DNA of 64,000 bases from Hadesarchaea archaeon (GTDB lineage Archaea; Hadarchaeota; Hadarchaeia; Hadarchaeales; Hadarchaeaceae): positions 96,001 to 160,000 of the forward strand of contig JAPDJH010000001.1 in NCBI GenBank assembly GCA_029259175.1, written 5' to 3'. A program made the translations under genes and the position numbers. The notes beneath the pieces are model-generated. The model was not told the DNA's origin. It was given only the letters and a program-made list of their open reading frames with translations, and did not search any database. Of the stretch, positions 22,624 through 47,703 are shown piece after piece (within the stretch, counting starts at the first letter, position 1; every line of letters starts with the position of its first letter).

Positions 22624-22715
22624 CCCGCGGTAACTCAGCCTGGTAGAGTGGCCGGCTGTAGACCCGGACGGCTGAAACCGGCATGTCGGGGGTTCAAATC
22701 CCCCCCGCGGGACCA
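22624..22715 (+). tRNA. tRNA-Tyr(GTA) with ~15-nt intron (22662-22676) and encoded CCA
   Basis: Acceptor cccgcgg/ccgcggg (C1:G72, A73), anticodon stem gccgg/ccggc, GTA at 22658-60, T loop ggttcaaatcc. Confidence 0.93.
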
Positions 22716-23905
22716 CCTACAACTTGTCCAGATGCCTCCTCAGAAATTTGCGCCATTTCCTCGAGGGCCCCGCTCTCCTGCAGGGCCCGCTCCACGATGT
22801 CCGGAGCCAACTCTAAGAGCTTCCGCACCACGCGGGCCACGATTTCCTCCTCTTTAGTCCTCCGCTCCTCGATTCTGAAGGCTTCTGAAGGCGAGAGCAC
22901 GGCGGAGCACCGGACGCAGTAAACCGCATCTTTGGGGTTCGCGCACCCGCACCTGGGGCAGACTTTCCGATCCCTTCCGGTGTCTATTCCGTAGTGCTTC
23001 AGCAGGGCGTCGTCCACATCCCTTCCAGAAAGATGGACGTAGCGCGCCGGAACTTGGCTCGTCTTGGTCCAGCCGAAGTAGGTCCTGAGCTGGTCTTCCG
23101 TGAGGACCTTGGCGAGGTGGGTGGCTCTGGTGTGTCTTAGAAGATGCGGGTAGATTCTCCGCTTGCTGAGGCCTGCGCGTCGGGCTGCACGCTTCAGGAT
23201 CTTGTTGAAGTACTCCACCGTGATCGCCTCTCCATTGGAGCCGGGCCAGAGCCACGCGCTGGGATTCTCCCGGTTGGGGTGGGAGTTCATCCATATCTGC
23301 AGATCGTGAACGCTCTCGACCAGCCTGATCCGCCTCATCCCGGTCTTCCCGTTAACCACGATTACGGCCCCGTATTGGTCGAATTCGACATCCCTGATCC
23401 GGAGGCCGAGGAGCTCCCCAGCCCTGCACCCGGACTCGTACCCAACATGGATCAGGGCCCGGTCCCGCGGGTTGCGGGCCCCTACGACGAGGCGCTGAAC
23501 GTCTCCGTAGCTGAGAACCCCCTCCGGGAGCTCCCGCCTCACCTTGGGGACTTTGATCACGCTCACAGGCTCGGGCGTGGGATCCCGCGGACTTCTGCAT
23601 CCGTGAACCCAGCGGAGAAAGCGCTTCACCCTCCGCCGGTAGGTGGAAACGGACTCAGGCCTGTACTCCTTCGAGGAGAGGGAGTCCATCCAAGCAATCA
23701 GATCCTCGCGCGTAAGCTCCTCATACGGCTTCCCGTCGCGCCCGAGGGTTAAAACCGCCTGCACGTTCGCCTTGATGCTCCAAGGGGAAAACCCTGAGAT
23801 CCGCATCTCTTGGACGAACTCCTCCAGCTTCCTGCGCCTGGGCTCCGAGAGCACGGACAGGATTTTGGAGAGCCAGCGGTTGAGGAGTTCGTGAGTCAAG
23901 TTCAT
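22694..23905 (-). CDS. int: Tyrosine integrase with C-terminal zinc ribbon
   Basis: GCR..E, GKTG, HLLRH, GW, RYVHL, CPRC..CVRC; ATG 23905 overlaps the upstream stop; the 3' end runs antisense into the tRNA. Confidence 0.93.
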   Translation of the reverse strand: MNLTHELLNRWLSKILSVLSEPRRRKLEEFVQEMRISGFSPWSIKANVQAVLTLGRDGKPYEELTREDLIAWMDSLSSKEYRPESVSTYRRRVKRFLRWVHGCRSPRDPTPEPVSVIKVPKVRRELPEGVLSYGDVQRLVVGARNPRDRALIHVGYESGCRAGELLGLRIRDVEFDQYGAVIVVNGKTGMRRIRLVESVHDLQIWMNSHPNRENPSAWLWPGSNGEAITVEYFNKILKRAARRAGLSKRRIYPHLLRHTRATHLAKVLTEDQLRTYFGWTKTSQVPARYVHLSGRDVDDALLKHYGIDTGRDRKVCPRCGCANPKDAVYCVRCSAVLSPSEAFRIEERRTKEEEIVARVVRKLLELAPDIVERALQESGALEEMAQISEEASGQVVGGPAGGI

Positions 23906-24978
23906 TTTTTCCCTCTCCTTTTCTTTTTGATATAAAGACGCATTTTTGGAACCCACAATGGGATTAATACATGCTCTTCGTATGACCTCTCTTCTTGTTT
24001 AAACAGGGTTGCTACTAAATTAGTGCCACAGCATGCAATGGCCTTTATCTCAAATGAACTAATTTTTGAATACGGCATACCATAAATCTCGTAAAACTTT
24101 TTCCGATCTTTTTGGTATACTTCTCTCACCCTGCTTATCTCCGGGCCTTCTACAACAGGTCGTATCCACTCTAACAGCTCCTCAAGTTGTCTTGTGGTGT
24201 TATAATTTCTCGCAACATTAAGCGCGGGAAATATCTCGGGATCATCTCTTTTGTCTTTGAAGAATTCTTCCAATTCTTCGGGCTTTTTTAATGCATATGT
24301 CCACGCTTCACGTGTTCCCGGATGTAAAGGAATCTCGCTAACAAGATATGTAAAAAGTGTTTCTAGTTCGGTTCTAAGCAATTCCCAGTTGAAACGAGCG
24401 AGTCCCCTAATAAGCTCCGCCTCATTAAGGGAGTATTCAAAAAGTTGATATTGTGTTTTTAGCCCCCCTTCGAGAGTCTCGCGCATTTCTTTCGTTTCTT
24501 CCATCCATTCACGGTAGCATGCGAACGATTGAGAATGGGGGCAATCTAAGAGCTTCCCTTTTTTAGATCTTCTGATTTCAAGAGATGAAATAACCAAGAT
24601 GGTATCAATAACATCATTGGTTAGTATCTCCTTTCCTTTTTCGACATCGAGCTGAATAAGGCTTGAAATATTAGATAAGTGTCTCAAAGTTCTTCCAACT
24701 GGGGTATTGTCCACCAACTCTATTAGGATTCTATAACGCTTCCCAGGGCCTCTTTCTAAAGGAGGCGCAACTTTGCGTATTATTTTGCCTTCTTCTTCCA
24801 TTTTTGAAAGGCACTCGCTAAGAGATGTCCGTGCAAGACCTGTTTCTATGACAAGATCTTCGAAGGTTTTAGGTCCTTTTTCTAAGGCTTCTTCAATTTT
24901 TCTTTCACTTATCTTTGGACGCCCACGCTTACGTCCCATGTTCCACCACGCCTTTCGTTTCATTTTCATAAAATCCAT
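23902..24978 (-). CDS. wHTH transcriptional regulator (putative repressor)
   Basis: PKTFEDLVIETGLARTSLSECLSKMEEEGKI. Confidence 0.7.
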   Translation of the reverse strand: MDFMKMKRKAWWNMGRKRGRPKISERKIEEALEKGPKTFEDLVIETGLARTSLSECLSKMEEEGKIIRKVAPPLERGPGKRYRILIELVDNTPVGRTLRHLSNISSLIQLDVEKGKEILTNDVIDTILVISSLEIRRSKKGKLLDCPHSQSFACYREWMEETKEMRETLEGGLKTQYQLFEYSLNEAELIRGLARFNWELLRTELETLFTYLVSEIPLHPGTREAWTYALKKPEELEEFFKDKRDDPEIFPALNVARNYNTTRQLEELLEWIRPVVEGPEISRVREVYQKDRKKFYEIYGMPYSKISSFEIKAIACCGTNLVATLFKQEERSYEEHVLIPLWVPKMRLYIKKKRRGKK

Positions 24979-24985
24979 ATTTTAG

Positions 24986-25016
24986 TAGGGAAAACTTACT
25001 TATATAGTTTTCTCTA
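24986..25016. promoter_or_regulatory. Divergent promoter / inverted repeat
   Basis: tagggaaaact-(tacttatat)-agttttctcta between the repressor and AbrB genes. Confidence 0.5.
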
Positions 25017-25034
25017 ACATATTTTTGTGAAAAA

Positions 25035-25238
25035 ATGGCAGCAGAAACAAAAAGGAGAATAATCAACTTGGGAGGATCGGGTGTAATAGCGATTCCTCCA
25101 GATTTTCGCCGTTATTACGGGTTGAAACCTGGTTCGGAGGTTCGGGTGCTTTACGATTCGGTACTTTTGATTGTTCCTTCCAAGTGCGAGCAGAAGTTGA
25201 AAGAAAAAGAGGAACTAGTCCGGAGGTTACTGGAGTGA
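25035..25238 (+). CDS. AbrB/MazE-family DNA-binding protein
   Basis: RRIINLGGSGVIAIPPDFRRYYGLKPGSEV. Confidence 0.85.
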   Translation: MAAETKRRIINLGGSGVIAIPPDFRRYYGLKPGSEVRVLYDSVLLIVPSKCEQKLKEKEELVRRLLE

Positions 25239-25331
25239 AGCCGGAATCCGCCCACACTCCTGCTTTCAACGCGCTTTTCAAATTCGCTCGAGAGCGCGGG
25301 CTCTTGAAGCGCGAAAAAGGAGGGAAGAAGC

Positions 25332-25577
25332 GTGAAGCCGGGAGAACGACCAAACATGGGGATGGGAAATAAAGACATCGAAATCCACATCCGGGCTATT
25401 GTCATCTCGCTTGAGCGCGAGCCCGAGGTGGTGCTCACAGCTGGGCAGGCTGGAATCGTTCGCATGCGAGGGGTTGAAAGCGTGAGCGGTGTTCCGAGCT
25501 TTATTCTTCCCGGCCCAAACCCGTCTTCAAGATTCGACAAAACGGGAAGGGTGGAAAGCTATGACATCAAACGGTGA
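25332..25577 (+). CDS. Hypothetical protein
   Basis: Short ORF between AbrB and the primase; uncertain. Confidence 0.3.
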   Translation: MKPGERPNMGMGNKDIEIHIRAIVISLEREPEVVLTAGQAGIVRMRGVESVSGVPSFILPGPNPSSRFDKTGRVESYDIKR

Positions 25578-28236
25578 AATCCCGAAAGCTGAAAACCTTC
25601 CGTCCGAACTCCTCAGACTCAACCGCTTCGTCGTCTGGCGCGAGGAGAAAAGAGGGAAGAAGCTGGTCAAGATCCCGTGTGCCCCGTGGAGGACCGGACA
25701 CTGGGGTCCGGCTTCCGCCACCGATCCGGACAACTGGACCGATTTCGAAACGGCGGTGGGATGGGCTGAGAAAAAACCTGACCATGGCGTTGGGTTCGTG
25801 CTCGGCGATGGAGTTGTGGGGATAGACCTCGACGGTTGCATCGACGAGAACGGAAATCTTACAGAGTTCGCGAACGAGCTCTTGCACCGCGCTGGCTCCT
25901 ACGCCGAGCTTTCACCATCGGCGCACGGAATTCACATCCTCGTGCGCGGGAGGCTCGATCAAGCGATCAAGCGGGACGACATCGGGCTAGAGGTCTATCC
26001 ATGCGGTCGGTTCTTCACACTTACCGGGCGGCGCTGGAAGCACGCGCCTTTGGAAATTCGTGAAAACCAAACCCTGCTCGACGAACTCCGAGAGAAGTTC
26101 GGTCGTGAGGTGAGGGTCGAGAAGGGCGGTGAGGGTGTGAGCGTTATCGAAATTATGGAAAAGCTGGCCCCCGAGGGGCTGAAAGCGCTGAAAAAGCGCG
26201 GGAAGAACCTCCAGGGGCCGCACCCGGTTCACGGGAGCACCACCGGCTGGAATTTCTCCATAAACCTTGAGAAGAATTCTTGGTTTTGCTACCGCCACTG
26301 GACTGGTGGTGGACCGTTTTCATTGGTCGGAATCTTGGGCAAAATCATTCAATGTGAAGATGTCCAAAAGTATGGGGGAAAATATCCCAACGAGATTGGG
26401 GACAGGATTTCAGAGCTGGCGCGAAAGCATGAAATCCAGTTTAAAGGAAAAGAGGCCCTTACTGTAGATCTCGGGAAGTACACCCTCCGGGTTTTGGGGA
26501 AGAACGCAATCCTACACGATCAGAAGGGGGATCCGGTCGAGGTTTTCCCTCTCCGCTTCCTGACCGCCGAGCGAGCGAAGGAAAAAATTCGGCAGATAAC
26601 CGGCATTGCGAAGGAGGAGATCGGCGCGAAAATGGCTCAGTTAATTCTGAAGCTCGAGGAAAACGAAAATGAAGAAAAAGACGAGGGTGAACTCGACATT
26701 AAGCCAGTTTTCGAATCGGAGTGGAAGGCCATACACCCAGCTCTCGACTTCCTTGATGGGGTTGCCTACATTGGTGTTCAGCTCCCTTGCGAGGTGGGGG
26801 GAAACGGCAACCCTGCTGATCTTCGGGACTTCCATTTCCTGATCACCAGCGAAAGAGAGAGAATTTTGGGGAGAAAAAAAGAGCTAGCCGAGCGCAGGAT
26901 CAAGCTGGCTCACCGCGTTATCACCTTCCCGAACCGGTGGAGCTTGGACGGTATCAGGAGTTGGCTCGATGGGGGAAAGATCGTTGAAAAAACAAAACTC
27001 TACCGAATGGTGCGGAGCGCGTTCGAGGACTACATGGAGTTCCAAGATGAGACCGATTACGATTTTCTAACCCTATGGACTATCGGCACCTATGTTTTCC
27101 CGATTTTTGGAGCATACCCCTATGTGTTCATTGGAGGGATTAAGGGAGTTGGGAAGACCAAGCTATTGACCCTCCTGAGCCTTATGGCTTTCAATGCTAT
27201 CTTTTCTGGGAATCTCTCCAGCGCTGCGCTCTTCCGTCTGATCCAGAGCGGGAGGGCCACAGTTTTATTGGATGAGAGCGAAAAGCTGGACAACCCGGAG
27301 AGAGCGCAGGAGCTACGGTGCCTCCTGCTGAACGGCTACAAGCGAGGAGGCTTGGTCTACCGCGTGAACAAAGACACGGGGAGACCGGAGCCTTTCGAGG
27401 TTTACTCACCCAAAGCTATCGCCAACATTCGGGGATTGGAAGACATTCTGGAGGATCGCTGCGTCAGCATTGTTATCGTAAAGGGAAAGACGGATGTGAT
27501 TGACCGGGAGCCAGAGATAGAAGACCCGAGGTGGGAGAAAATCCGGGATGCTCTTTATACTTTTGCTCTAACTCACCATAAGAGAATAGTTCAAATAAAA
27601 AATGAAATCGGTAAGCTGGAGGAACTGAGAGCGCGAAGCCGCGAGATTTGGCTCCCCATCCTAACCCTCGCCAAATTCTTTGATGAGGGCAGGGGGCTTT
27701 ACGATAGGATTCTGAAATACGCGATTCAGAAGGAGGATGAGCGCCTCGTCGAAAACATCACGGAGACTCGGGAGTACTTACTGGTGCAAGCTCTCACCAA
27801 ACTCGTCCAATCGAAAAAAAATTCTTCAGAAATATATGAGGATGGGTACCTCCCGGTACATAAAATCAAAGACGCGTTGGCTGAGTACTTCGATGGAGAG
27901 CAGCGCTGGCTCACTTCACGCTGGATTGGGAAAGCCCTCCGGCGGCTGGGGTTCAAGGATAAGCGCCGAGTGGGAACTGGCTACGAATATCTGATCCCTG
28001 CTGATAAAGTTTCGGACCTAGCTGAGAGGCTCCAGATCAGGCGGCCTCTGCTCCAAGAGTTTTACAAAGTGTTGCAGAGACTTGCGGAAAGGAGAGGTGA
28101 GTTCTCCGAGGATGAGCTGATATCTAAGTGTAAAGAGGCGGGAATTGAGAGCCCCCGGCCATTCATCAAGAGAGCCAAAGAGCGCGGAGACTTGGTTCCC
28201 CTCCCAGATGGGAACCTCCAGGTGGTGTTGAGATGA
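25561..28236 (+). CDS. Replication protein: AEP primase-polymerase + Zn-binding domain + P-loop helicase-like (DUF3631-like) domain
   Basis: GVGFV..IDLD, YAELSPS.HGIH, LEVY..RFFT.TG; HP.HGS..G.NF..WFC.RH; GIKGVGKT, LLDE, LNGY, DRC. Confidence 0.85.
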   Translation: MTSNGEIPKAENLPSELLRLNRFVVWREEKRGKKLVKIPCAPWRTGHWGPASATDPDNWTDFETAVGWAEKKPDHGVGFVLGDGVVGIDLDGCIDENGNLTEFANELLHRAGSYAELSPSAHGIHILVRGRLDQAIKRDDIGLEVYPCGRFFTLTGRRWKHAPLEIRENQTLLDELREKFGREVRVEKGGEGVSVIEIMEKLAPEGLKALKKRGKNLQGPHPVHGSTTGWNFSINLEKNSWFCYRHWTGGGPFSLVGILGKIIQCEDVQKYGGKYPNEIGDRISELARKHEIQFKGKEALTVDLGKYTLRVLGKNAILHDQKGDPVEVFPLRFLTAERAKEKIRQITGIAKEEIGAKMAQLILKLEENENEEKDEGELDIKPVFESEWKAIHPALDFLDGVAYIGVQLPCEVGGNGNPADLRDFHFLITSERERILGRKKELAERRIKLAHRVITFPNRWSLDGIRSWLDGGKIVEKTKLYRMVRSAFEDYMEFQDETDYDFLTLWTIGTYVFPIFGAYPYVFIGGIKGVGKTKLLTLLSLMAFNAIFSGNLSSAALFRLIQSGRATVLLDESEKLDNPERAQELRCLLLNGYKRGGLVYRVNKDTGRPEPFEVYSPKAIANIRGLEDILEDRCVSIVIVKGKTDVIDREPEIEDPRWEKIRDALYTFALTHHKRIVQIKNEIGKLEELRARSREIWLPILTLAKFFDEGRGLYDRILKYAIQKEDERLVENITETREYLLVQALTKLVQSKKNSSEIYEDGYLPVHKIKDALAEYFDGEQRWLTSRWIGKALRRLGFKDKRRVGTGYEYLIPADKVSDLAERLQIRRPLLQEFYKVLQRLAERRGEFSEDELISKCKEAGIESPRPFIKRAKERGDLVPLPDGNLQVVLR

Positions 28237-30264: not shown

Positions 30265-31011
30265 TCAGAATTGAACGGGAATGTAAAATGACGGAATGTT
30301 CTCGCTTCTAAATAGGTGAATATTTACGTTAATCGGCGCGTTGTCGCCCTCACGCTCGTAGTACTCAAGCACAATTGGATTCGCAAAAACATCTGGAGGT
30401 GCATCGTCTGGGATGTCCAGAAAGTAGAGCCGTGCCGTGATGGATGCCGAGATCCACTCAGGATTGTTCTCGTCAAATTTTCCAAAACCAGCGTAGGCCA
30501 AGCCGTTTTCATCAGCAAGCGTTGCTCTACTTTCTACGGGGAGCCAAACACGTTGAAGTACTACTACGCGCTCACGCGGGTAAAGTTCACTAAATCTGTA
30601 GCCAGCGACTATGGGACTATTCGTTGTGACAATCGCCTGAGTTGTCGGGGCCTCGACGCGCTGGCCGTAGAGCTGGATGAGCTTGCCGCCGACCACCTCG
30701 ACGCGGGCGACGTTGTCATCGCCGACGTAGTAGAGGACGTAGGCCCCCTGACCCTCGAAGTCGTAGTACTCGTGCTCGTCGCGGGGGACGCTGAACCCTA
30801 TGTACACGTTCTCCAGCACGAGGTTGTCCGGGGTTCCCCAGTAGGTGAACTCCCCGTACACGATCACGAGGTTCTCGCCGGGGCTCACCATTTCCGTGAT
30901 CGCCTCCGGCCACTCCCAGGGCGGGGGGATGATGCCGAACGCTATCAGCCCGACCACGAGCATGGCGCAGAGGATTGCGGCGTCGATGAGGTGGGTCCTG
31001 CCGAGCTTCAC
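30265..31011 (-). CDS. N-terminally anchored membrane/secreted protein
   Basis: Single N-terminal TM, acidic beta-rich body. Confidence 0.65.
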   Translation of the reverse strand: MKLGRTHLIDAAILCAMLVVGLIAFGIIPPPWEWPEAITEMVSPGENLVIVYGEFTYWGTPDNLVLENVYIGFSVPRDEHEYYDFEGQGAYVLYYVGDDNVARVEVVGGKLIQLYGQRVEAPTTQAIVTTNSPIVAGYRFSELYPRERVVVLQRVWLPVESRATLADENGLAYAGFGKFDENNPEWISASITARLYFLDIPDDAPPDVFANPIVLEYYEREGDNAPINVNIHLFRSENIPSFYIPVQF

Positions 31012-31092
31012 AATAACTCACTCCAGTTGTTTTCTCACCAATGTTTTTGTGTGAAGCATATAATAAAGGTGAAATGACCATCAAAACATTCA

Positions 31093-31401
31093 CTAGTCGT
31101 AAATCACCACCTCTTCCATTCTCTTCATCCACTCCTTCAGAGTTTTCTCCAGCTCGCTTTCCTCCTCGCGTGGGCTTTGCGAGCTGGCGCTCATTACCGT
31201 GCTCCAGCTCTCCATATCGGATTCCAAGAGGAAAACTAGGCAGAACAAGCCGACCACGATGCAACAGATGAGAAACATCCAGCCCACTACCGTCCGGAAG
31301 AGGCCTCCCCCCTCCAAGTATCCCAGCCCGAGGAAGCGGTCGGCCAAGTACAGCACCACGAAGCTGGAGCAGCTCATCGCGATGATCCTGTACCACCCCA
31401 T
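31093..31401 (-). CDS. Small 2-TM membrane protein
   Basis: Hydrophobic helices; GAGGTGA RBS. Confidence 0.55.
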   Translation of the reverse strand: MGWYRIIAMSCSSFVVLYLADRFLGLGYLEGGGLFRTVVGWMFLICCIVVGLFCLVFLLESDMESWSTVMSASSQSPREEESELEKTLKEWMKRMEEVVIYD

Positions 31402-31407
31402 AGCAAC

Positions 31408-33390
31408 TCACCTCGCGAGCGCGGGCCAGAGCGTTCCGATTATCACATCTCCCCAGAGCACGGTGATGAGGAGTCCTATGAGCATGGCCGGGACGAACGG
31501 GTAGCCTACCTGACCGGTTTTCCTGTCCATGTACATGCGTGGCACCGCCAAGCTCTGAAGGGCGACGATTCCTTCAGCCCATAGCCCCACGCACCCGATC
31601 CACCGCGCGGCGTCGGTGAGCCAGCCCATCGGGGGGAGAAACGCTGGTGCGGCGAACAGCAACGAGAGGTACCAGACCGACCAAGGCAGGGAGATCACTC
31701 CGTCATACAGGTTGTCGAGCACAGCAAACCCTGTGACCAGCAACGCGAAGCCGAAGAGGGGCGGAAACACCTGAATGAAGACATCTGGGAACTTCTCGTA
31801 GGCCCTCCCCAGAAACGGCCAAACGCCGATGGCAACAATCACTGCGCCGAGCGTGCCCCATCTGAGCATCTTCTTCAGCGTTTTTCGTTTCACAATCTTT
31901 GCGAGGAGGGGGATGTGGCGATGCCTGCGCTTGAGGAACATGGCCGTGCACACAATTGGATTTCCTATGAACAGCGAGTTCAGCATCACCGACAGGAGGA
32001 AGGCAATGTTGGGGAGGTTGGAGACGGACCAAACGGGCATCCAGGCGCCGATGCACACGAGCAGCAGGATGTCCCCACCGCCTAGGTGGTGCCAGAGGTT
32101 CAAGAACCCCGCGACGAGCAGGGCCCCGAGCATTCCCAGCACGCCGAGCACCGGCAGGATGGTTTCGAAGCTGAGGGACTGTAAGTAGGGGTACTGAGAA
32201 AAATCCCAAGCGCCCGCTATGCTCGCCGGAACGGGAGTGAAGTCAAGCCAGCACGCGATGTAGTAGACCGCCGCGGTCGCGGTGAGGGCTTTGACAAGAG
32301 CCGCGTTAACGCGCAACGTCAGGGTGTCGACGGCGGCAACCGAGGCGACGAGTCCCAGAACCACCGCGAAGGGGAGCCAGTCCCACGGCGAGACGCCGGC
32401 TCCGAGAGCGCCGGGCAACCAGAGGATGAGCCCGGTGGCCAAAACAAACATTGCAAGGCCAAACAGCTTCACTTGAGTTGTAAACTCAAGCGCTCCGGCT
32501 GTCGCAAGTGTTGTGGCGCCCGGAAATCTGTGAAACCGAACTGATCCAAAAAGGTGTGCTTTTCTAAGCCCCGCTTTCAGCTTTATTCCTCCGACGATCA
32601 AAGCAAAAGCCATCCCCATCAACATCCCTCCCCAAACGAGGTTCGCGGGATCTTGACCCTGCTGAACTTCATAAAATATCTTAAATGTTGGAAGCAACAG
32701 GACACCGCCCGTTACAAGGCACGCCCACTCCCAGACCTCTCTCACCAAATCCTTCGGCTCCGCCACAGGTGAAAACCCTACCTTCACGAGATATCCAATT
32801 AGGGAAATCGATACCACCATCCAGACCAAATGTTCAACCATCGGAGGAGATCCCACCAACCCGTAGATCTTGACGGCGAGAAATATGAGGGCCGAGAGGC
32901 CCACCGCCATAAGCGCCGAGCCCCACATTTTTCTGGCGGACTTTGAAAGCTCGTGAAACTGCGATGATCCTGTTTTGACCGCGAACACGCTTATCGCCAT
33001 CAGAAGCGCCACCCAACATGTATTTTCCGACCCCAGCGAATTCCCAATCAAACCAAAAAGAATCAAAAGCGTCAAAACCGACAGGAACAGGCCAGCTCCC
33101 TCCAGCAGACAGCTTCCACCGACCCTTACTTCCTCATAGGGCACCTTCAACCCGATGATTGTCAGAGCCATCCCCATCGCCACCAAGAGCACTGAGGCCA
33201 GCGCGTTGGCGAAGGTGAGTGTTACACCGATTAGATCCTTTACCGTGATGAAGGCGAATATCAGCGCTCCAAGTCCCATGAAAACAAGCATAAATCCTGC
33301 AATCTTTCCCGTCGTCGTTCTGGTGATCCGTCGTTTTCTCTTGGGGATCCTTGGAATCTCGAACTCCACCACGTCTTTTCGTTTGGGCAC
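31408..33390 (-). CDS. Polytopic membrane protein with C-terminal A24 (prepilin-peptidase-like) GxGD aspartyl protease domain
   Basis: AAVDTLTLRV (Asp1), LGGGDILL (Asp2), GYPFVPAMLIG..WGD; ~300 aa extra N-terminal TM region. Confidence 0.7.
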   Translation of the reverse strand: MPKRKDVVEFEIPRIPKRKRRITRTTTGKIAGFMLVFMGLGALIFAFITVKDLIGVTLTFANALASVLLVAMGMALTIIGLKVPYEEVRVGGSCLLEGAGLFLSVLTLLILFGLIGNSLGSENTCWVALLMAISVFAVKTGSSQFHELSKSARKMWGSALMAVGLSALIFLAVKIYGLVGSPPMVEHLVWMVVSISLIGYLVKVGFSPVAEPKDLVREVWEWACLVTGGVLLLPTFKIFYEVQQGQDPANLVWGGMLMGMAFALIVGGIKLKAGLRKAHLFGSVRFHRFPGATTLATAGALEFTTQVKLFGLAMFVLATGLILWLPGALGAGVSPWDWLPFAVVLGLVASVAAVDTLTLRVNAALVKALTATAAVYYIACWLDFTPVPASIAGAWDFSQYPYLQSLSFETILPVLGVLGMLGALLVAGFLNLWHHLGGGDILLLVCIGAWMPVWSVSNLPNIAFLLSVMLNSLFIGNPIVCTAMFLKRRHRHIPLLAKIVKRKTLKKMLRWGTLGAVIVAIGVWPFLGRAYEKFPDVFIQVFPPLFGFALLVTGFAVLDNLYDGVISLPWSVWYLSLLFAAPAFLPPMGWLTDAARWIGCVGLWAEGIVALQSLAVPRMYMDRKTGQVGYPFVPAMLIGLLITVLWGDVIIGTLWPALAR

Positions 33391-33394
33391 GGCG

Positions 33395-34822
33395 TCACCG
33401 CCTCTTCTCCTTTAGCTTACCCATCTTCTTCAGCTCCTCTATGCTACTTTCGAGTTGCTCGATGGTGACTCCAAGTTCTCTCGCGGCTTTTGTTTTTGAA
33501 ATTTTGCCGCGGTGCTTCACGATGTATGCCAGCACCTTTTCGTTCAGGTCGGCAGTTTTGCGGTCCTGTTTTTGGAAGGGGAAAGTCGATATGGCCTTGT
33601 GAATCCTGATTTCCAGGAGATCCATGGGAGGAACTTTATACGCGAAATCTCCCTCTTTTTCACTAACTTTTTCAACGCACTGAACCTCCAGCCACGGGTG
33701 CCGAATTATTCCGAAGAGCCTTCCCAGGAAGTAGAGGAGAGACCTCTTTTCGCGCAGATCTCTCACGGCCCAGATTTCCCCGTTGATTAAAAGTCTGCCC
33801 TCGTTTATTCCCGGCGCGTACTGAAGCAACAATCGGGGGCGCGTTTTTTTCAGAACGATGCCCTGAAGGTAAAGCCTGCCGGCAGTTCTGGTTTTCTTGA
33901 CAAGTTGCACCAGCCAATCAGTTGCCCTTTTTACTCTGTTGAACTCTCGCCTGAGCACATTGGGAGACCCGTCGAACATTATCTTGAGAGCGCCCGTTTC
34001 GCCCAACGCTCTTTCGACCGTCTTGTACATGTACCAGCCCTGAACATAGGGGTTGTCCTCCGAGGTGGGGTAGTAGACCCCGTCGTCGCCGACCCTCTCG
34101 GCCTCTATGAAAATTCTGTCGCCGAGCTTGGACGCGATGTATTCGGCCGCTCCCTCGACGAACGCCTGTCCTAGGAAATCCTTCTTGGAGAGTTCGGACA
34201 GGTCCCCTCTCACGGCGTTCATCAGGTAGTGTGTAAGCTCGTGGTAGAGCACCGTCTTCTCGAGGGCCGGATCATTGCACGCGAGGGGATTCACGAACAC
34301 GCGGTTCGGCGGTTTGAAAAGCCCCAGACACGCCTCCTTGAGTTCACCAGTGCCCAGTATCGGGTACCGGGTGAGCTTGAACTTGAAGCCGTGTTCACCC
34401 AACCACTTCATCAAATCCTCGAGTCTCGCTCTCCCGTCGTAAACTATTCGACCGCTCACTCTCCTTCTATCCACTGGTGTGATCTTTGGATCCTTCATAA
34501 GTTCAAGCGCGATCTCCCGAACGGCTTTTTCCTCCCCCTTCACAACGAGCCTAAATCGCTTTGGATACTTCCCGCCCGAGTACCAGATCGAGACAACAGA
34601 GGCGTTAGCGTATCCCTCAAAGTATTTCTTCAGAAACAGCTTGTTCCATTCTTCTGCTGATGTTTTCTTTTTTGCCGATCTGTTGAAGTGCTCCTTGAAA
34701 AGGATGTCTTCGAGAACTCCGTCAACGACTAAAGTTTCAACTTTCGGTGGGGGGGGCTCCGGGCAACGGGCTGAGATCGTATTTCCCCGTTCTGACTTTG
34801 AATCTAACGCGCGTTTCGCCAA
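33395..34822 (-). CDS. HExxH zinc metallopeptidase with C-terminal wHTH (probably the C-terminal half of a fusion with the upstream ORF)
   Basis: LYHELTHY...FVEGAAEY; KISKTKAARELGVT..L..SIEEL. Confidence 0.7.
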   Translation of the reverse strand: MAKRALDSKSERGNTISARCPEPPPPKVETLVVDGVLEDILFKEHFNRSAKKKTSAEEWNKLFLKKYFEGYANASVVSIWYSGGKYPKRFRLVVKGEEKAVREIALELMKDPKITPVDRRRVSGRIVYDGRARLEDLMKWLGEHGFKFKLTRYPILGTGELKEACLGLFKPPNRVFVNPLACNDPALEKTVLYHELTHYLMNAVRGDLSELSKKDFLGQAFVEGAAEYIASKLGDRIFIEAERVGDDGVYYPTSEDNPYVQGWYMYKTVERALGETGALKIMFDGSPNVLRREFNRVKRATDWLVQLVKKTRTAGRLYLQGIVLKKTRPRLLLQYAPGINEGRLLINGEIWAVRDLREKRSLLYFLGRLFGIIRHPWLEVQCVEKVSEKEGDFAYKVPPMDLLEIRIHKAISTFPFQKQDRKTADLNEKVLAYIVKHRGKISKTKAARELGVTIEQLESSIEELKKMGKLKEKRR

Positions 34823-36149
34823 GGTGCGACAGAAACCTGCATTTTTTGATTTCCAAACGCGAATACCGGTGCATCTGATGTCGTGCCTTGGGATCCCCGT
34901 GGACGAATAGAACGAGTTTCGGCCTCGCGCGTTTGATGTTCTCTATGATGTGCTTTGGGTGGGCGTGCCCCCTGATCTCGAACTTCTTCACCCTGCACTT
35001 GACGGTCAGCTCGGACTCGCCGATGCGAAACTTCCCTCCCTCCTCCATCTTCCACAGATGCCATCCCGGCCAGTCCTCGTCCTGATACCCGACGATGAAT
35101 ATGGCGCTCCTCTTCTCGTCAAAGATTTTAATCGCGAGATTGGAGCTCGCCCCCTCCTGCAGCGTGCCGGGAGTCGCGACGAATATGCTCGGCTTCTTGC
35201 TGTCCCTAATCTTCCTGAACCTCTCGTCGGCCTCGGGGTTCGCATCGACGCCCCGGGGAAAGTCGATGCGGGTGAAGCATTCCCATATGGTCGCCACCTT
35301 TTCCCTGTAAGCAGGGTCCTTCCCGATTACGTCCAGCATATGGTTCATCATCCCTATTGAGTAGCACGGAACTCTCGGGAGCTTTCCCTCCCTCATGGCG
35401 CTGGCAATCACATACATGATCTCCTGCGCTCTCCCGGTAGCGAACACGGGGATGAGGATTCTCCCCTTTTGCTGGAGCACGTTCTTCATCTCCTCGATGA
35501 GGCTGTTCTCCGCTGAAATGATGCTGGTGGTCGCATCTGGCCTCGAAAACTCCGCGCCGTACGTGCTCTCGGAGATCACCACATCGGCCTCCTCCCACTT
35601 CTCGAAGTTGCCGCCCATGCGCGTGTCGAAGGTGCAGATGTCGCCTGTGTAGAGTATCGTGGCTCCGTCCCAGTTCAGTACGATTTGGGCGGAGCCGGGT
35701 ATGTGCCCGGCGTCCCTGAAGACGGCGCTGATCCCGTCGTCGATCTGGAACGCTTCTCCGTATTCTCTCGTCTCCCACACATTCTCCGGCGGCAGGGGCG
35801 GCGAGGGTTCGCCTCTTCTCCTCCTCACCCTTACCGCGTCCTTGAGGATGATGTAGGAGAGCTCCTTGGTGAGCGGCGTGGAAAAAATTTTGAGATTTTT
35901 GTTCTTCTCGAGCAACCAGGGCAGGGCCCCGATGTGGTCTCGGTGCGAGTGAGTTATCAGCACCGCCAGCAGCTTCTTGCCTTTCAGCGGTTCGAAGTTG
36001 GGGATTTGGTCTTTTTTCGGCGATGTCCCGCAGTCCAGCATCACGTACCTCTCACCATCACCCACGAGGTAGCAGCTCCTGCCGACCTCGTCTGCCCCCC
36101 CGAGTGGCAAAAATTCTAAAAATTTCTTGGCGCCCGCTTGGTCGGTCAT
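34737..36149 (-). CDS. MBL-fold beta-CASP nuclease
   Basis: LGGADEVGRSC, LDCG, THSHRDHIG, AGHIPGS, YTGD, ESTYG, GRAQE, GYQ, GHA, VHGD. Confidence 0.9.
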   Translation of the reverse strand: MTDQAGAKKFLEFLPLGGADEVGRSCYLVGDGERYVMLDCGTSPKKDQIPNFEPLKGKKLLAVLITHSHRDHIGALPWLLEKNKNLKIFSTPLTKELSYIILKDAVRVRRRRGEPSPPLPPENVWETREYGEAFQIDDGISAVFRDAGHIPGSAQIVLNWDGATILYTGDICTFDTRMGGNFEKWEEADVVISESTYGAEFSRPDATTSIISAENSLIEEMKNVLQQKGRILIPVFATGRAQEIMYVIASAMREGKLPRVPCYSIGMMNHMLDVIGKDPAYREKVATIWECFTRIDFPRGVDANPEADERFRKIRDSKKPSIFVATPGTLQEGASSNLAIKIFDEKRSAIFIVGYQDEDWPGWHLWKMEEGGKFRIGESELTVKCRVKKFEIRGHAHPKHIIENIKRARPKLVLFVHGDPKARHQMHRYSRLEIKKCRFLSHLGETRVRFKVRTGKYDLSPLPGAPPTES

Positions 36150-36154: not shown

Positions 36155-36523
36155 TCACCGAGCCGAAGTAATTCCTCCCCACGGAAGATATACTTTGCTC
36201 ACCTGGAGTCCCAGCCTGATCCTGCCGCGGCCGATTGCGTTTTCCCACCAGTCAAAGGTCCAGGAGGACTTCAGGGCGGTTTTCACTATGATCTTGTCGT
36301 TCTTCCGCACGCACACTAGGTCCAGCTCCCCGTAGCAGACCCGCAGGGCCCGATCTCCCTCTGCCGCTACCATCCCTTCCCTCACGGCTCTCCTGCACAG
36401 CCTGAGGGCCGCGCTCGGATTGGATATGTTGAAGCGTTGCTTGAGCCTCAGAAGCGCGTGCTTGGTTACCACGAACTTCAGCTTCTTGTTGTCGTTCAGG
36501 TCAACCGCTTTTTCCATTTTCAT
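36155..36523 (-). CDS. DUF4258/RelE-fold-like small protein (possible toxin)
   Basis: VVTKHALLRLKQRF...IIVKT. Confidence 0.5.
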   Translation of the reverse strand: MKMEKAVDLNDNKKLKFVVTKHALLRLKQRFNISNPSAALRLCRRAVREGMVAAEGDRALRVCYGELDLVCVRKNDKIIVKTALKSSWTFDWWENAIGRGRIRLGLQVSKVYLPWGGITSAR

Positions 36524-37626: not shown

Positions 37627-38004
37627 ATGCGGAATAACTTCGCTCGTCTGACGCCACGGGAACTCGAAAAGCTCTCCACCGACTTCTTTAGGAAAATGTG
37701 TGGGGAGGTCAAGTCAACACCATACGTGAAGGACTATAGAGCGGACGTCATAGCAGGGGAGGATGACATGTGGTGCTCGTCCAAGCACAGCCGAAGGCAC
37801 AATGTTGGAGGCGAAGTCCAACGAACACTTAGGATGACGCGGAAGCACGGGGCGAACAAGGCGGTGTTTATTACCTCCTCGAACTTTTACCCGGGAAGCG
37901 GAAAAGCATACAAAGGGGTGCCAATCGAGCTTAGAATTGCAACAGATTCTCCTAGCTACTGGAAAGAATTTCGAAGTTTTGGTGGCCTGGTTGCTAGCGT
38001 TTAA
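37627..38004 (+). pseudogene. Decayed Mrr-like restriction endonuclease
   Basis: LTPRELEKL...D..ADVIA...GANKAVFITSS, but QxK and other residues are scrambled. Confidence 0.55.
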
Positions 38005-38073
38005 ATAATAGCGGGTGCTCTTTTGAATCCCAACGTTTTTTATTTTCACCTCCAGAAAGTGATATGCGAAATC

Positions 38074-39051
38074 ATGAGAGTCTCCTTGCTAACAGAGATA
38101 GCTCCAGAGAATAAGCTTTTGAGTAGGATAGCTTCTGAAGCTAGAAACGCAAAGACCGCATTCATAGCGGTTTCATTTATTCAAAGGGAGGGTTTGAAAT
38201 ACTTCTTCGAAAGCATAAAAGGAATGTTAAATAAGGGAAAGCAAGTTACAATTTACACATCGGGTTACCTTCGAATTACTGAGCCAAACGCATTGGAGGA
38301 TCTGTTGAAATTGACTAAAAGCTACAATTCTTTAAAAGTCTATTTTAACCCGGACGACAGGTTCCATTCCAAATTCTTCTTGTTTGAAAAGCCGAACAAA
38401 ACTTATAGCCTTTTTTTGGGTTCTTCTAACATAAGCCTGGGCGGGCTGGCTGAAATTGGGGAGTTAAACGTCCATATTAGTGGCAAAATCTCAGACCAGA
38501 TTTACAGAGACTTGAAAATTGCGATTGACAATCTAAGAAAGAATAGGCGCTTTAAGAAAATTGACAGGGATGTGATATCACAATATAAAACACAATTTAG
38601 AAAACAGAGAAAACGAGAAAGGAGAGGCACGGGGGCGAGACCGGTTTACCACAAACCTTCTCTTCCACCGCTACCAACCTTGCCGGTTTATGTTGTTGTT
38701 GACGAATTCACTAGCGAGGAGATGAGGAAAATCAAAGAAAAACATCCAAGATGGAAAGATTACGTAGACTATATGTCGTCTCTCAACGGGTTGAAAAAAG
38801 GAGATCCCTTTCTTTTAATTAGAAACATTCGTGGGAGACCCAAAATGTTTAATGTTGCTCAATTTATCGAATATGATAGGATTGAAGGCATAGGAAAAAT
38901 TGCTCACATAGAGCCTTACTTCAAAAGAGATCGTCCTCTGAAAAATCTAGCGAAAAAGCTTAGACTCTCAGAGAAAAAGCTTTTGGAGAGGAAAAAATTG
39001 GATAACATTGAGATTGCCATATTGAGAAGAAACTTCAAGATAGACATTTAG
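38074..39051 (+). CDS. PLD-family nuclease (NgoFVII/BfiI-like N-terminal domain)
   Basis: IAVSFI..GL, ITEPNAL, FHSKFFLF, GSSNIS.GGL..GELN. Confidence 0.8.
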   Translation: MRVSLLTEIAPENKLLSRIASEARNAKTAFIAVSFIQREGLKYFFESIKGMLNKGKQVTIYTSGYLRITEPNALEDLLKLTKSYNSLKVYFNPDDRFHSKFFLFEKPNKTYSLFLGSSNISLGGLAEIGELNVHISGKISDQIYRDLKIAIDNLRKNRRFKKIDRDVISQYKTQFRKQRKRERRGTGARPVYHKPSLPPLPTLPVYVVVDEFTSEEMRKIKEKHPRWKDYVDYMSSLNGLKKGDPFLLIRNIRGRPKMFNVAQFIEYDRIEGIGKIAHIEPYFKRDRPLKNLAKKLRLSEKKLLERKKLDNIEIAILRRNFKIDI

Positions 39052-39202
39052 ATAGTGTGAATGACTTTTCCCTCTTTTAGCACTTCCGCAGACATAAGAT
39101 AGCGGAGCGTGAATAAACATGCCTCAGGAGGTTACATCTGCGGAACTTGTGCACATCAACAAGGCTTGTGTAAGTAGGTTTGCACTTAATCTACGGTTTC
39201 GT

Positions 39203-39291
39203 GGCGGGTGGCGGATCCCATCGGGGTTTCCTAAGGCCCATTCCGAGGACGATATCAATGGGAGACGACCCGAAGGCTCCCGCCACCCGCC
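39203..39291. other. Long GC-rich stem-loop between convergent genes
   Basis: ggcgggtggcgg/ccgccacccgcc closing stem with inner tcggg/cccga and cccatt/aatggg. Confidence 0.6.
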
Positions 39292-39420
39292 GTAATAGAA
39301 TTTTGGTAGAGATTTTTAGAGGTTATGTTTGCTTGGGAGACACTTGTGGAGGACTACATCCCTTCTTCACAGAACTTTTTTGGAGGACGGACGGGCCCCT
39401 ATTTGTCATTAGAAAGCAAA

Positions 39421-40431
39421 TTAAATTTTTTCTAAGAGACCTAGCCAGTCCTGCTTGCTCTTGACTAGAAATCCGCTACTTGCTAGAAAACTGCCGTCTG
39501 GACGGTCTTTGATCGGCACGATGTGGATCGGATACTTCCCCTCTGGATCCAGCTCCTTTATTTTAGGATGCGCTCGAACCGCCTTCTCGGAGAAGATTCC
39601 GAGCCCAGCATAGATCTCTATTCTCCTTTTTTCTTTTCGCCCGGCCAAACGGCACTGCGCAATTATAGGAACACGAAGATCCAGACGGGCTTTCTCAACA
39701 AATCCGGGTATGTAGACGGGGGGTGGCTCGAATTCAGGAATGAGATCCCAAATTTCTTTTTCAGCTTCTTTGGTCAACACTCCAATTTCCCTGCCCAGCG
39801 GAAACAGTTTTTCGCGAATGATGCTAATGTGCTTAAAGAATGAAATCATGTGAGTAATCGGCACGCCACTCTTTACCAAGACAAAAACGTCAGAGTGCTG
39901 AACTTGAGCGCCGGGAAGCTCAAGCCAAGCTCCTTGAAATTTCGTGTCTTTAATGCTTACTCTCAGCCTGGGTTTTGTCCAATTGGCACCCGGTTTTTTG
40001 ATTTCAGAAATGTCGCGCGGGAGATATTTTTCTAAAGGCCCCCTTGTTTTGTCCACGCGCGCCTCAACTCCAAAATGCTCTTTCAAAAACTTCACGAACC
40101 CTATTTCGCCGAGCTCGCCACGCGTCGAGTCCGCCCACTTCTGTAACAGGTCGCGCTCCCCGCCGGTCCGGAAGTCTATCGAAGCATAGCTGAATGCAAG
40201 GCTGAGCCCCCGGATAACTGCTGTTGCGTACTCCTCCGTGTTCAGCCACACTAACCGATCCTGGAGGCGTGAGAGCCACTCCGCAACGTTTTCCCGTATT
40301 AGCTCGCCAACTCTCGTGGCGCTACGCACCAGCTTTTTTGACAAATCTTCCGCGGTTTCCTTTCTCAACCCGTGCTTTCTCATCACCCGTTTGACTTCCT
40401 CACGCACTTCCGCTTCCCAGTGCTTCATCAT
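39421..40431 (-). CDS. Putative type II PD-(D/E)xK restriction endonuclease
   Basis: RGELGEIGF, PRDI, VSIK; context next to a C5 MTase. Confidence 0.6.
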   Translation of the reverse strand: MMKHWEAEVREEVKRVMRKHGLRKETAEDLSKKLVRSATRVGELIRENVAEWLSRLQDRLVWLNTEEYATAVIRGLSLAFSYASIDFRTGGERDLLQKWADSTRGELGEIGFVKFLKEHFGVEARVDKTRGPLEKYLPRDISEIKKPGANWTKPRLRVSIKDTKFQGAWLELPGAQVQHSDVFVLVKSGVPITHMISFFKHISIIREKLFPLGREIGVLTKEAEKEIWDLIPEFEPPPVYIPGFVEKARLDLRVPIIAQCRLAGRKEKRRIEIYAGLGIFSEKAVRAHPKIKELDPEGKYPIHIVPIKDRPDGSFLASSGFLVKSKQDWLGLLEKI

Positions 40432-40511
40432 TACCCATCCGATGCAATAAATTTAAGTTTTAAGTGCAGGCTCTCCCAACGGCTTCAAACCCTTGTGGAA
40501 CCGCGGTTTTC

Positions 40512-41108
40512 TTAGAGGAGCTTATCAAGCTCCGCGTAGAGCTCTTTTCTAGATAAAACAGTGCTATTCGTCTTCTTGAATTTCGCGCGGATCCGCCGGA
40601 GAAGCGCACGCACGCTCTCCGGCTTAAGCTGGCGCGAGCGTTTAACCAACCAAGACATTATCCGGGGATCGTTCTTAATTGCAGAATCAAAGAACTCCAC
40701 CCAAGTTCTCCATCTCTCCTGCGAGGCAACCTCTGGTGGCATTTTTGCAAGCTCATATGAATACCGGAATATAGGATGCCGGAGAAGAGTTTTTTCTGAA
40801 AATCTATGCACCGAAGCGTGGTACTGCGCTGCTTCCAGAAACAAAAACAGCTCTGTTTGCGGGAGAGCGAAAAGCTTTCTCGCTTTCTTCCACAAGCGCT
40901 CCAACTCCTTCCCAAACCAGTACCAGTACTCGGATCCGTATCTTCTAGCATTGGGGAAGCGATTCCGCATTCTCCGCTCAATAGTTGGCACTTCGGCGCT
41001 CAAATATGCGTCCACTCTGTCGGCGGTTTCTTTTTCTTGATAGGTTATTGCACCCCCGCCTGCTTTCTTGTAAAAGGGCTCGTCGCCACGGCGTACGAGA
41101 ACGGGCAC
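40512..41108 (-). CDS. Hypothetical helical protein in the GHKL-REase operon
   Basis: Starts 2 nt after the GHKL stop; YWYWFGKEL and RWRTWVEFFD motifs. Confidence 0.6.
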   Translation of the reverse strand: MPVLVRRGDEPFYKKAGGGAITYQEKETADRVDAYLSAEVPTIERRMRNRFPNARRYGSEYWYWFGKELERLWKKARKLFALPQTELFLFLEAAQYHASVHRFSEKTLLRHPIFRYSYELAKMPPEVASQERWRTWVEFFDSAIKNDPRIMSWLVKRSRQLKPESVRALLRRIRAKFKKTNSTVLSRKELYAELDKLL

Positions 41109-41110
41109 GT

Positions 41111-43084: not shown

Positions 43085-43216
43085 CACCAAGACCTTTTTC
43101 TTCCATTTATTTAATAACTCCTCAAACGCCCAGTAATAGCAAAATGAAAAGATGCGAGCGCTGAAAGTAGCATAAAACTCAAATCCCCAAGTCATCTAGA
43201 TAAATCTGGTGAAAGA

Positions 43217-44605: not shown

Positions 44606-44650
44606 ACTCGCTATCGACTTTTTAATTTGCCCGGAAGCAAATAAAAAATC

Positions 44651-45325: not shown

Positions 45326-45453
45326 TCTTCATCAGAGCGCGACCGTTCTCGTCCCGAACGAAATCCTTTTTCTGTGCTCTCTTACCACGCAAGAAGATTC
45401 GAGCGGTTTATGCCCTTTTCCGCTTTCGGGATTTGGACACTCTTCGCTGGATG

Positions 45454-47691: not shown

Positions 47692-47703
47692 AGGTGATTT
47701 TTA

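Follow-up and report, generated by a model that had tools for sequence, protein, structure and literature searches.

A frameshift at a C8 tract splits a predicted β-CASP nuclease and zincin-like fusion gene of a Hadesarchaea archaeon

Two overlapping open reading frames (ORFs) on the minus strand of a Hadesarchaea archaeon genome raise the question of whether they are two genes or a single one, and, if single, how it came to be divided. They lie in a window of 64,000 nucleotides (contig JAPDJH010000001.1, positions 96,001 to 160,000); all coordinates given below without a contig or locus name are plus-strand positions in this 64-kb window, and the gene in question is read on the minus strand. 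The 5′ ORF (34737..36149) is complete and encodes a β-CASP metallo-nuclease of the CPSF73/aCPSF1 type (P0001, 470 aa), as identified from Pfam families, motifs and homology. The 3′ ORF encodes an HExxH domain and a winged helix-turn-helix (wHTH) domain. The frame breaks by +1 at a run of eight C on the minus strand (C8, 34749..34756; G8 on the plus strand) within a Pro-rich inter-domain linker, a site located by reading the minus strand and by homology to two proteins, P0139 and P0124. As judged from homology and coding signal, the two ORFs are halves of one gene, and the locus would be better recorded as a single frameshifted gene than as a nuclease followed by a 382-aa hypothetical protein.

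The β-CASP ORF starts with an ATG at 36149, with GGTGAGG upstream, and stops with a TGA at 34739-34737; an alternative GTG at 36158 gives the 473-aa form of the protein found in databases (P0004). Its last codons are CCC GGA GCC CCC CCC ACC GAA AGT TGA, with the TGA sitting four codons past the C8 tract. The first-pass annotation of this stretch had quoted the same tract at the end of the nuclease ORF, and the minus-strand read bears it out. Homology to P0139 and P0124 stops in frame 0 at ..SPLP and restarts in the +1 frame at KVETLVVDG. This +1 frame is open for 515 codons in total, down to 33395, and from a TTG at 34822 it encodes 475 aa (P0002). Joining the β-CASP frame to the downstream frame requires the skipping of one base (+1), and the joined product has a length of (36149-33398+1-1)/3 = 917 aa. 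The annotation's proposal that a C7 tract would give one protein of ~917 aa with a Pro-rich linker is upheld both by this arithmetic and by the junction alignment to P0139 described below.

The downstream frame has no convincing start. The TTG (34820..34822), located 86 nt within the β-CASP ORF, is the sole start-type codon upstream of 34543, and the minus-strand read revealed no GGAGG- or GGTGA-like (Shine-Dalgarno-like) motif upstream of it. Between this TTG and a GTG at 34541..34543 the frame contains no ATG, GTG or TTG, and the start had rightly been described as poor. The GTG corresponds to V94 of P0002 and is the start of the database gene call P0003 (382 aa, P0002 residues 94-475). It falls within a β-strand of a predicted ferredoxin-like domain (model E68-76, P0002 88-96), and this domain begins three residues past the linker KVE; the C-terminal half thus appears to lack a start of its own. 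Coding frames were also followed with a codon log-odds score trained on long ORFs of this genome. At about 34875-34800 the coding signal leaves the β-CASP frame and is taken up by the downstream frame without an intervening non-coding segment, and the downstream frame is coding from the scoring window starting at 34772, about 200 nt upstream of GTG 34543. Both halves are devoid of further stops and keep all their catalytic motifs, which argues against a long-dead pseudogene.

We searched for relatives of both halves. With P0002 as query, HMMER detected 16 proteins at E ≤ 0.001 among 1.84 billion representative proteins, the top non-self match being P0124 (938 aa); a word-based near-length search with the C-terminal half returned only the window's own 382-aa entry, P0003. 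A search for longer relatives of P0001 (824-2350 aa) yielded five proteins of 852-1568 aa that are at least 40% identical to it, each encoded by one long ORF: P0139 (945 aa, 64% identity to P0001), P0140 (866 aa, 57%), P0124 (54%, with the source label Candidatus Hadarchaeales), P0141 (852 aa, 44%) and P0142 (1568 aa, 40%). Among proteins of 258-823 aa, identity to P0001 reached a ceiling of 35% in the 119 non-self matches listed. Since only long single ORFs occur above 35% among the matches listed, the clade to which this nuclease belongs seems to be wholly fused at ≥40% identity. Public records name the fused proteins just 'MBL fold metallo-hydrolase', MBL standing for metallo-β-lactamase.

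The two halves align to these relatives in a collinear way. P0001 is 64% identical to residues 21-480 of P0139, and residues 26-473 of P0002 are 45% identical to residues 480-945 of the same protein, the C-terminal wHTH included. For P0124, the alignments cover P0001 9-463 versus P0124 26-481 (54%) and P0002 21-425 versus P0124 481-887 (42%), and they meet at the linker. The HExxH...EGAAEY module recurs at residue 641 in P0140 and at residue 623 in P0141. P0125 (645 aa) is N-terminally cut, yet spans the junction; P0126 (251 aa) starts past the junction and is uninformative on the fusion. For a direct view of the junction, the window sequence 34901-33395 was read with one base skipped just past the tract (ACCG read as T; a slip inside the tract would give P). 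This produced one alignment to P0139 431-945, ungapped at the junction and with a linker of the same length (PLPGAPPTK versus PLPWMSSPK). No frameshift is needed in any of the four close relatives, and their linkers vary (WMSSPK, AAPVVEK, KPSEPEK). Full-length homologs, which the first-pass annotation had suggested looking for, therefore exist: with P0139, P0140, P0124 and P0141 each encoded by a single ORF, its reading of the native product as a fusion of nuclease, HExxH domain and wHTH domain is corroborated, and the outcome that it would have counted against this, homologs that are always two separate genes, is contradicted.

The nuclease half is of a known kind. P0001 matches the Pfam families Lactamase_B (62.7 bits, cut-off 22.7), Beta-Casp (49.8 bits, cut-off 27.7) and RMMBL (26.7 bits, cut-off 21.6), and contains the motifs HSHRDH, DAGH, YTGD, ESTYG and VHGD. 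With the Lactamase_B and Beta-Casp pair and both the MBL and the β-CASP motifs, it has the hallmarks of a β-CASP nuclease of the MBL superfamily. All 26 matches of P0001 to sequences of the Protein Data Bank (PDB) at E ≤ 1e-10 are RNA-processing β-CASP proteins or Cas14. An AlphaFold2 (AF2) model of P0139 (mean predicted local distance difference test score, pLDDT, 87.8; predicted template modelling score 0.60) superposed on CPSF73 with a Z score of 42.5, on TTHA0252 with 41, on aCPSF1 with 38 and on Cas14 with 36.2; the DNA-type members Apollo, SNM1A and Artemis scored just 22-24. In line with an RNA-type enzyme, the protein has an RMMBL domain and is closer to RNA-processing than to DNA-repair members. 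From sequence and model, the nuclease is assigned to the CPSF73/aCPSF1 type. Because its PDB matches are RNA-processing proteins and the structural scores favour the RNA type over the DNA type, it is probably a ribonuclease (RNase), acting on RNA. A role in the repair of DNA-protein crosslinks, considered in view of the combination of protease, nuclease and DNA binding, was dropped, as the nuclease groups with the RNA type and not with the SNM1/Artemis type.

The C-terminal half matches no Pfam or NCBIfam family (no Pfam match at E ≤ 0.01). Its domains were delimited on an AF2 model built from 18 aligned sequences (pLDDT 69; model numbering is that of P0002 minus 20) and compared with known structures by VIA-align, for which the stated background is Z 7-8. 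Directly past the linker, P0002 29-116 (model 9-96; 34475..34738) would form a ferredoxin-like α/β domain with the order E-H-H-E-E-H-E. Foldseek related it to S6, NikR-C and PII-like folds with a probability of 0.97-0.99 but E values of about 1e-2. P0139 and P0124 both retain this region, and the P0139 model predicts it with confidence.

The following domain, P0002 117-310 (model 97-290; 33893..34474), was identified as gluzincin-like from its VIA-align matches and its motif. Over ~165-172 residues (model 97-280) it gave Z 10.7 with 3cmn, about 10 with M1 aminopeptidases (10.4) and 9.0 with thermolysin. The HELTH motif, encoded at 34243-34229, is followed ~25 residues on by FVEGAAEY. The close relatives P0139, P0140, P0124 and P0141 have HEIAH, HEVAH, HEIVH and HEIAH, each together with EG[AS]AEY, and the motif is also present in P0125; E223, G224 and A226 are invariant in eight aligned sequences. 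Both the HExxH motif and the downstream Glu of gluzincins are thus conserved among relatives. Family matches of this domain were weak (flagellinolysin, E 8.5e-4; the metallo-protease family phrog_87, E 3.6e-3; DUF5700, 5.3e-3, in P0124), and the best Foldseek match was the M1 enzyme PepN (E 2.8e-3). We regard the HExxH domain as gluzincin-like with moderate support from the fold match, which the motif strengthens.

Two further domains complete the C-terminal half. P0002 311-420 (model 291-400; 33563..33892) is a conserved β-rich domain, recognized by invariant columns in our alignment A2; it has a pLDDT below 50 in the model of the C-terminal half and of ~88-93 in the P0139 model (residues 785-886). 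P0002 421-475 (model 401-455; 33395..33562 with the stop) is a predicted wHTH, found by VIA-align. The segment at model 398-455 gave Z 8.6 with 5duk (root-mean-square deviation 2.2, 57 residues aligned), 7.7 with the Z-alpha domain 4kmf and 7.5 with MarR, IclR and ROK types. Overall, it superposes in the model on known wHTH domains of the MarR, Lrp, DeoR and Z-alpha types with Z 7-8.6 and a deviation of ~2 Å over 51-57 residues, at a pLDDT of 83-90, and its sequence also matches the wHTH tails of unrelated proteins (P0129-P0138). Other comparisons added little. The best scores of the C-terminal half in the ESM Atlas (0.82-0.84) were under the level counted as meaningful, and the profile of alignment A2 matched among PDB sequences just the β-CASP tail contributed by its fused rows. 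PADLOC assigned no defence family to either half, to P0124 or to the operon neighbours beyond weak sub-threshold rows (LmuA, E 0.0015, for P0001; CasR, E 0.0043, over the wHTH of P0002).

The family divides into two branches. The close branch, made up of the window protein, P0139, P0140, P0124 and P0141/P0125, keeps HExxH; the window protein and P0139 have a wHTH at the C-terminus, P0124 and P0126 a zinc ribbon, and P0140 and P0141 no such module. The distant branch (P0127, P0128, P0130, P0142, which is an ORF of the metagenome locus L005, and an ORF of the locus L004) has the same core of β-CASP and zincin-like domains, after which come a hydrophobic stretch and B repeats of the InlB type. 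In P0127, P0128, P0130 and P0142 the catalytic Glu is replaced (HLxTH or HTxxH), so that catalysis may not be the conserved role of the zincin domain. The distant-branch genes of the two metagenome loci (L004 8243-11656; L005 8477-13183) divergently adjoin genes for a thymidylate kinase and a deoxynucleoside monophosphate kinase. L004 also contains a gene for topoisomerase IA into which an intein bearing a LAGLIDADG domain is inserted. In the wider family, P0137 keeps HELAH and has a DnaJ-like N-terminus. As far as sequences allow, the conserved unit is the nuclease with the ferredoxin-like and zincin-like domains, the C-terminal module being variable; we infer that this module may be a targeting or regulatory part.

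By these searches the family is small and rare, with few members among the 1.84 billion representative proteins. Searching named plasmids and phages with the C-terminal half (tblastn) gave no match, and P0124 matched phages in its β-CASP part alone (tblastn, coverage ≤46%). Pattern scans recovered no relative of the C-terminal half among 43 pattern matches in IMG/VR or among 16 in GTDB species representatives, and five loci in metagenome contigs, all distant relatives.

Is the tract real DNA, and is it unusual? The genome of 1,306,024 bp contains four C/G runs of at least 8 and 55 of length 7, roughly as the decay from lengths 5 to 6 to 7 predicts. The C8 tract itself is statistically unremarkable; what goes beyond chance is the collinear homology on both of its flanks. 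Logan contigs of three sequencing runs of one study, X1 (1604 nt, depth 5.3), X2 and X3 (46,688 nt each, depths 25 and 13.8), all read C8 with no indel and no other letter, and no contig with an alternative length at the tract was reported in X1, X2 or X3 at a min_share of 1. No RNA sequencing run was listed among the data sets that contain the locus. A coding-score test over the whole genome found a same-strand frame switch at none of 43 A/T runs of at least 8, which argues against a general problem with homopolymer indels. The test also flagged 11 A/T runs and two C/G runs of length 7 at frame switches, which may be ordinary gene boundaries. In a collection of 5.8 billion proteins, no fused allele closer than 64% was present among proteins of 824-2350 aa.

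The same genome has a second broken gene, for a 3-keto-disaccharide-hydrolase-like domain (L009 1604-2463; C3:91103-91962 in genome coordinates), in two plus-strand frames, 1604-2134 and 1993-2463. It adjoins the genome's only other 8-base G run (G8, L009 2149-2156). The downstream piece matches positions 76-186 of the 187 of PF06439 and begins directly past GGG codons; the TGA of the first frame lies ~15 nt before the G8 tract. As the stop of the upstream frame precedes G8, this break is not a simple error of tract length. The two longest C/G runs of the genome are a G11 (C1:5637-5647), where no long frame is evident in a six-frame translation, and a run of twelve C (C3:135455-135466), which encodes an in-frame GGGG in a minus-strand ORF for a repeat protein, this ORF being seemingly intact.

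How, then, was the gene split? When intact, it would encode a protein of ~917 aa composed of a β-CASP nuclease, a Pro-rich linker, a ferredoxin-like domain, a gluzincin-like HExxH domain, a β-rich domain and a wHTH. A single-base insertion in the C-tract of the linker's proline codons, from C7 to C8, would have caused the +1 shift. Because the frameshift falls in the linker, the main product would be a free, catalytically intact nuclease of 470 aa, close in length to TTHA0252 and other stand-alone RNases. The C-terminal 450 residues (zincin and wHTH), with no credible start, would be made rarely, if at all, and slippage of the tract could in principle undo the insertion. We find it fairly probable that the break is a recent, unprogrammed +1 insertion at a mutational hot spot, reversible in principle and without an evolved recoding signal; the lesion is presumably not adaptive. 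The traits of programmed +1 frameshifting of the prfB or antizyme type were missing: the site is unconserved, the stop lies four codons downstream, there is no stimulator, and the local RNA fold around the tract is no more stable than shuffles (z +1.3).

Several points weigh against this explanation or against the account of the protein that underlies it. The evidence for C8 consists of assembled contigs, which hide minority C7 or C9 alleles; X1-X3 come from one study, possibly the window's own source, and the X2 and X3 contigs, being equal in length, are maybe not independent. Stop-free halves with intact motifs fit a maintained switch or recoding equally well, and the linkers of the relatives were compared at the protein level. 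CCC-C contexts are prone to +1 slippage by tRNA-Pro, which makes it plausible that the C8 allele yields some full-length product. As for the protein, the zincin assignment comes from a structural match of moderate strength (Z ~10 versus a background of 7-8), Pfam giving no significant match, and the function of the whole was read from folds and family resemblance only.

Of the two explanations offered by the first-pass annotation, a switch or an assembly error, the latter is disfavoured by the C8 of three runs and by the absence of frame switches at the 43 long A/T runs, and the former is unproven; a fixed frameshift mutation, the simplest option, had been omitted. Under phase variation, frequent changes of tract length during replication would switch the gene between two products: with C7 or C10 a full-length enzyme, tethered or regulated, and with C8 a free nuclease. 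The break coincides with a homopolymer, and runs this long are hypermutable in other prokaryotes. Both halves of the gene are intact, the tract is in a dispensable linker, so that either state would give a folded product, and the gene belongs to a mobile element and has a dense restriction-modification island as its neighbour; on/off switching is common in such surroundings. Homopolymeric-tract contingency genes of bacteria are among the subjects of a review (Orsi et al. 2010, PMC2831843). However, contigs of all three runs have C8 with no alternative contig reported, the fused allele is absent from the protein collection, C/G runs of at least 8 are not enriched in the genome (four, about as expected), and the differing linkers of the relatives imply that a conserved proline tract is no feature of the family. 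We consider a phase-variable locus rather unlikely, and a C-tract that works as a reversible switch on an archaeal mobile element, between a DNA-tethered, protease-coupled RNase-zincin-wHTH form and a free RNase, distinctly unlikely. If true, the latter would place a contingency locus in an archaeal phylum that is uncultured and associated with thermophiles, the enzyme under its control would be of a new kind, serving in conflict or RNA processing, and the core of β-CASP, ferredoxin-like and zincin-like domains would be a functional unit coupling RNA cleavage to the recognition or cleavage of proteins.

Recoding of the C8 allele, either by a +1 slip of tRNA-Pro on CCC-CCC-A or by slippage of RNA polymerase, would instead yield mostly the 470-aa nuclease and some 917-aa protein at a fixed ratio. 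A CCC in the P site can re-pair perfectly with the +1 CCC within the run, the C-terminal half retains its full coding signal without a start of its own, and the resulting linker would equal that of P0139 in length. Yet the arrangement is unconserved, the four close relatives being plain single ORFs; no stop or pause codon follows the slip site directly, no Shine-Dalgarno-like stimulator is present, and no stable downstream structure was found, so that recoding appears improbable. Homopolymers are also the classic site of indel errors, and a second broken gene adjoins the only other 8-base G run, as would suit an artefact of sequencing or assembly that conceals a C7 tract and an unbroken 917-aa gene in the actual element. 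An artefact is nevertheless highly improbable: C8 is shared by the contigs of X1 and X2/X3 at depths of 5 to 25, no A/T run of at least 8 breaks a frame, and at the second G8 the upstream frame stops before the tract, which is not a mere tract-length error. Finally, the halves could be two native genes, the nuclease standing alone and the second protein being translated from TTG 34822 or GTG 34543. Gene callers indeed produced two proteins (P0004, 473 aa; P0003, 382 aa), and stand-alone β-CASP proteins of ~454 aa are common. Against this, all informative relatives are fused, the homology and the coding signal of the downstream frame start at the tract, 200 nt before GTG 34543, and TTG 34822 lies in a stretch without homology and lacks a Shine-Dalgarno-like motif. 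The probability that we give to two native genes is practically negligible. A recent, unprogrammed insertion is accordingly the explanation that we retain.

The split gene is part of a run of minus-strand genes in the order 122-aa ORF, split gene, 660-aa ORF, 102-aa ORF and 248-aa ORF, with no family for any of the neighbours. The co-directional 122-aa ORF (36155..36523) lies upstream, its stop abutting the start of the β-CASP ORF. Downstream, the co-directional 660-aa ORF (31408..33390) starts at GTG 33390, 5 nt past the stop of the fusion gene and with AAGGAG upstream. Being very hydrophobic, as read from its sequence, it is probably a polytopic membrane protein. A 231-aa ORF listed at 30716-31411 on the minus strand has no coding signal; the coding frames there are those of the 102-aa (31401-31093) and 248-aa (31011-30265) ORFs, and spurious long ORFs are frequent in this stretch of 60% GC (30265-31411).

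The setting is that of an integrated element. A plus-strand tRNA gene at 22624-22712 was called by ARAGORN with a 4-base anticodon, which probably reflects an intron, and was confirmed as a tRNA by Rfam. It is overlapped by the 3′ end of a minus-strand tyrosine integrase gene (22694-23956; Phage_integrase, 4e-20), and a plus-strand gene for a primase/helicase-like replication protein follows (25489-28236; PHROG DNA primase/helicase, 2e-43). Together, tRNA, integrase and primase mark the left end of an element (22624..28236), and the GC content is mosaic. The 3′ end of the tRNA recurs as an exact 14-nt copy at 45454-45467 (E 0.046 in a comparison within the window). Weak as this match is, it could mark the far attachment site, which would delimit an element of ~23 kb.

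On the other side of the split gene there is a dense restriction-modification island (37627-51257), with GC dropping to 36-40% at 47-51 kb. It comprises genes for an Mrr-like nuclease (37627-38004), a PLD-family nuclease (38023-39051), a type II restriction-endonuclease-like protein (39421-40431; PADLOC, 1.5e-53) and a C5 cytosine methylase (43217-44605), and further an HhH-GPD glycosylase, an EVE domain protein, an N6-methylase with an S domain, an R.Pab1-like nuclease and an N4/N6 methylase.

The C-terminal half was detected in only one of 41 related genomes and the fused form in only one of the 66 genomes of the phylum, in both cases this genome (G000) itself. The β-CASP part of the query matches frames of ~640 aa in 63 of these 66 genomes, which we read as the housekeeping aCPSF1; the copy of this genome is at 3714-4988 of contig C12. 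Given this distribution and the integrase, tRNA and primase genes upstream, the split gene is an accessory gene, carried by a plasmid- or virus-like element integrated at a tRNA in a small (1.3 Mb) metagenome-assembled archaeal genome.

In archaea and eukaryotes, β-CASP RNases have central roles in transcription termination and in the processing of RNA 3′ ends, and the effector of type VII CRISPR-Cas has recently turned out to be a β-CASP nuclease as well. The present family would add a small, rare clade in which a zincin-like domain is a permanent part of such a nuclease, with a wHTH, a zinc ribbon or a hydrophobic stretch and InlB repeats as C-terminal modules, and of which at least one member is carried by an integrated mobile element. 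The first-pass annotation did not recognise this architecture, and neither did we find it described: the C-terminal half belongs to no Pfam or NCBIfam family, and our literature searches returned no paper combining 'β-CASP' and 'zincin' and nothing relevant on β-CASP metalloprotease fusions in archaea or on mobile elements of Hadarchaeota. The fused domain architecture thus seems to be undescribed, the nuclease being of a known kind and the frameshift ordinary unless reads show variation. The suggestion that the nuclease is activated by self-proteolysis found no support in this analysis. For biochemistry, the architecture poses a specific question, namely whether a protein partner of the RNase is cleaved by the zincin domain or just bound by it.

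Among known systems, the closest in its nuclease is aCPSF1/FttA, the archaeal β-CASP RNase and transcription-termination factor (PDB 3af5, 2xr1, 2ycb, 9bct), which shares the core of MBL, β-CASP and RMMBL domains and its motifs. The best NCBIfam match of the window nuclease is the aCPSF1 model TIGR03675 (218.8 bits), its matches to PDB sequences of aCPSF1 range from 1e-39 to 1e-42, and the P0139 model gave Z 38. However, the score is under the equivalog cut-off of 580.2 bits, and the match covers profile positions 173-614 of 631, leaving unmatched the N-terminal part, which we take to be the KH domains. The window nuclease was rejected as an aCPSF1/FttA equivalog on both counts. Furthermore, the window protein has ~450 extra C-terminal residues and is encoded by an accessory gene of an element, in a genome with a separate aCPSF1-like gene.

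Stand-alone bacterial and archaeal β-CASP RNases of ~430-455 aa (such as TTHA0252 of Thermus, PDB 2dkf/3idz; 'Cft2 family RNA processing exonuclease') resemble the 470-aa product in size and architecture (6e-40 for TTHA0252 among PDB sequences, Z 41), but they are 29-35% identical to it, and the window nuclease falls in a separate clade, fused at ≥40% identity. Cas14 of type VII CRISPR-Cas (PDB 8yhd, NF045584) is a CPSF73-like β-CASP protein, linked through its C-terminal extension to a targeting module, and it is matched with 195.8 bits, E 1e-29 in PDB and Z 36.2; its C-terminal domains are, however, unrelated. An assignment as Cas14 was rejected, the score of 195.8 bits comparing with a cut-off of 800. 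A scan of the window for tandem repeats gave three short rows only and no CRISPR-like array, and no Cas family was detected among the scanned neighbours.

With gluzincins (thermolysin M4, M1 aminopeptidases, the putative hydrolase 3cmn), the C-terminal half shares the HExxH helix and a Glu helix ~25 residues on (EGxAEY), and its fold may be that of the thermolysin-like catalytic domain (a moderate match, Z 9.0-10.7). It differs from them in that the domain is embedded in a nuclease, has no significant Pfam or NCBIfam peptidase match, and is accompanied by a distant branch without the catalytic Glu. Bacterial contingency genes of the homopolymeric-tract type have in common with this locus a coding mononucleotide run of 8 in which a change of 1 nt switches the product. 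Here, in contrast, the organism is an uncultured archaeon and the contigs show C8 only, and the shift, instead of abolishing a protein, would separate two folded modules.

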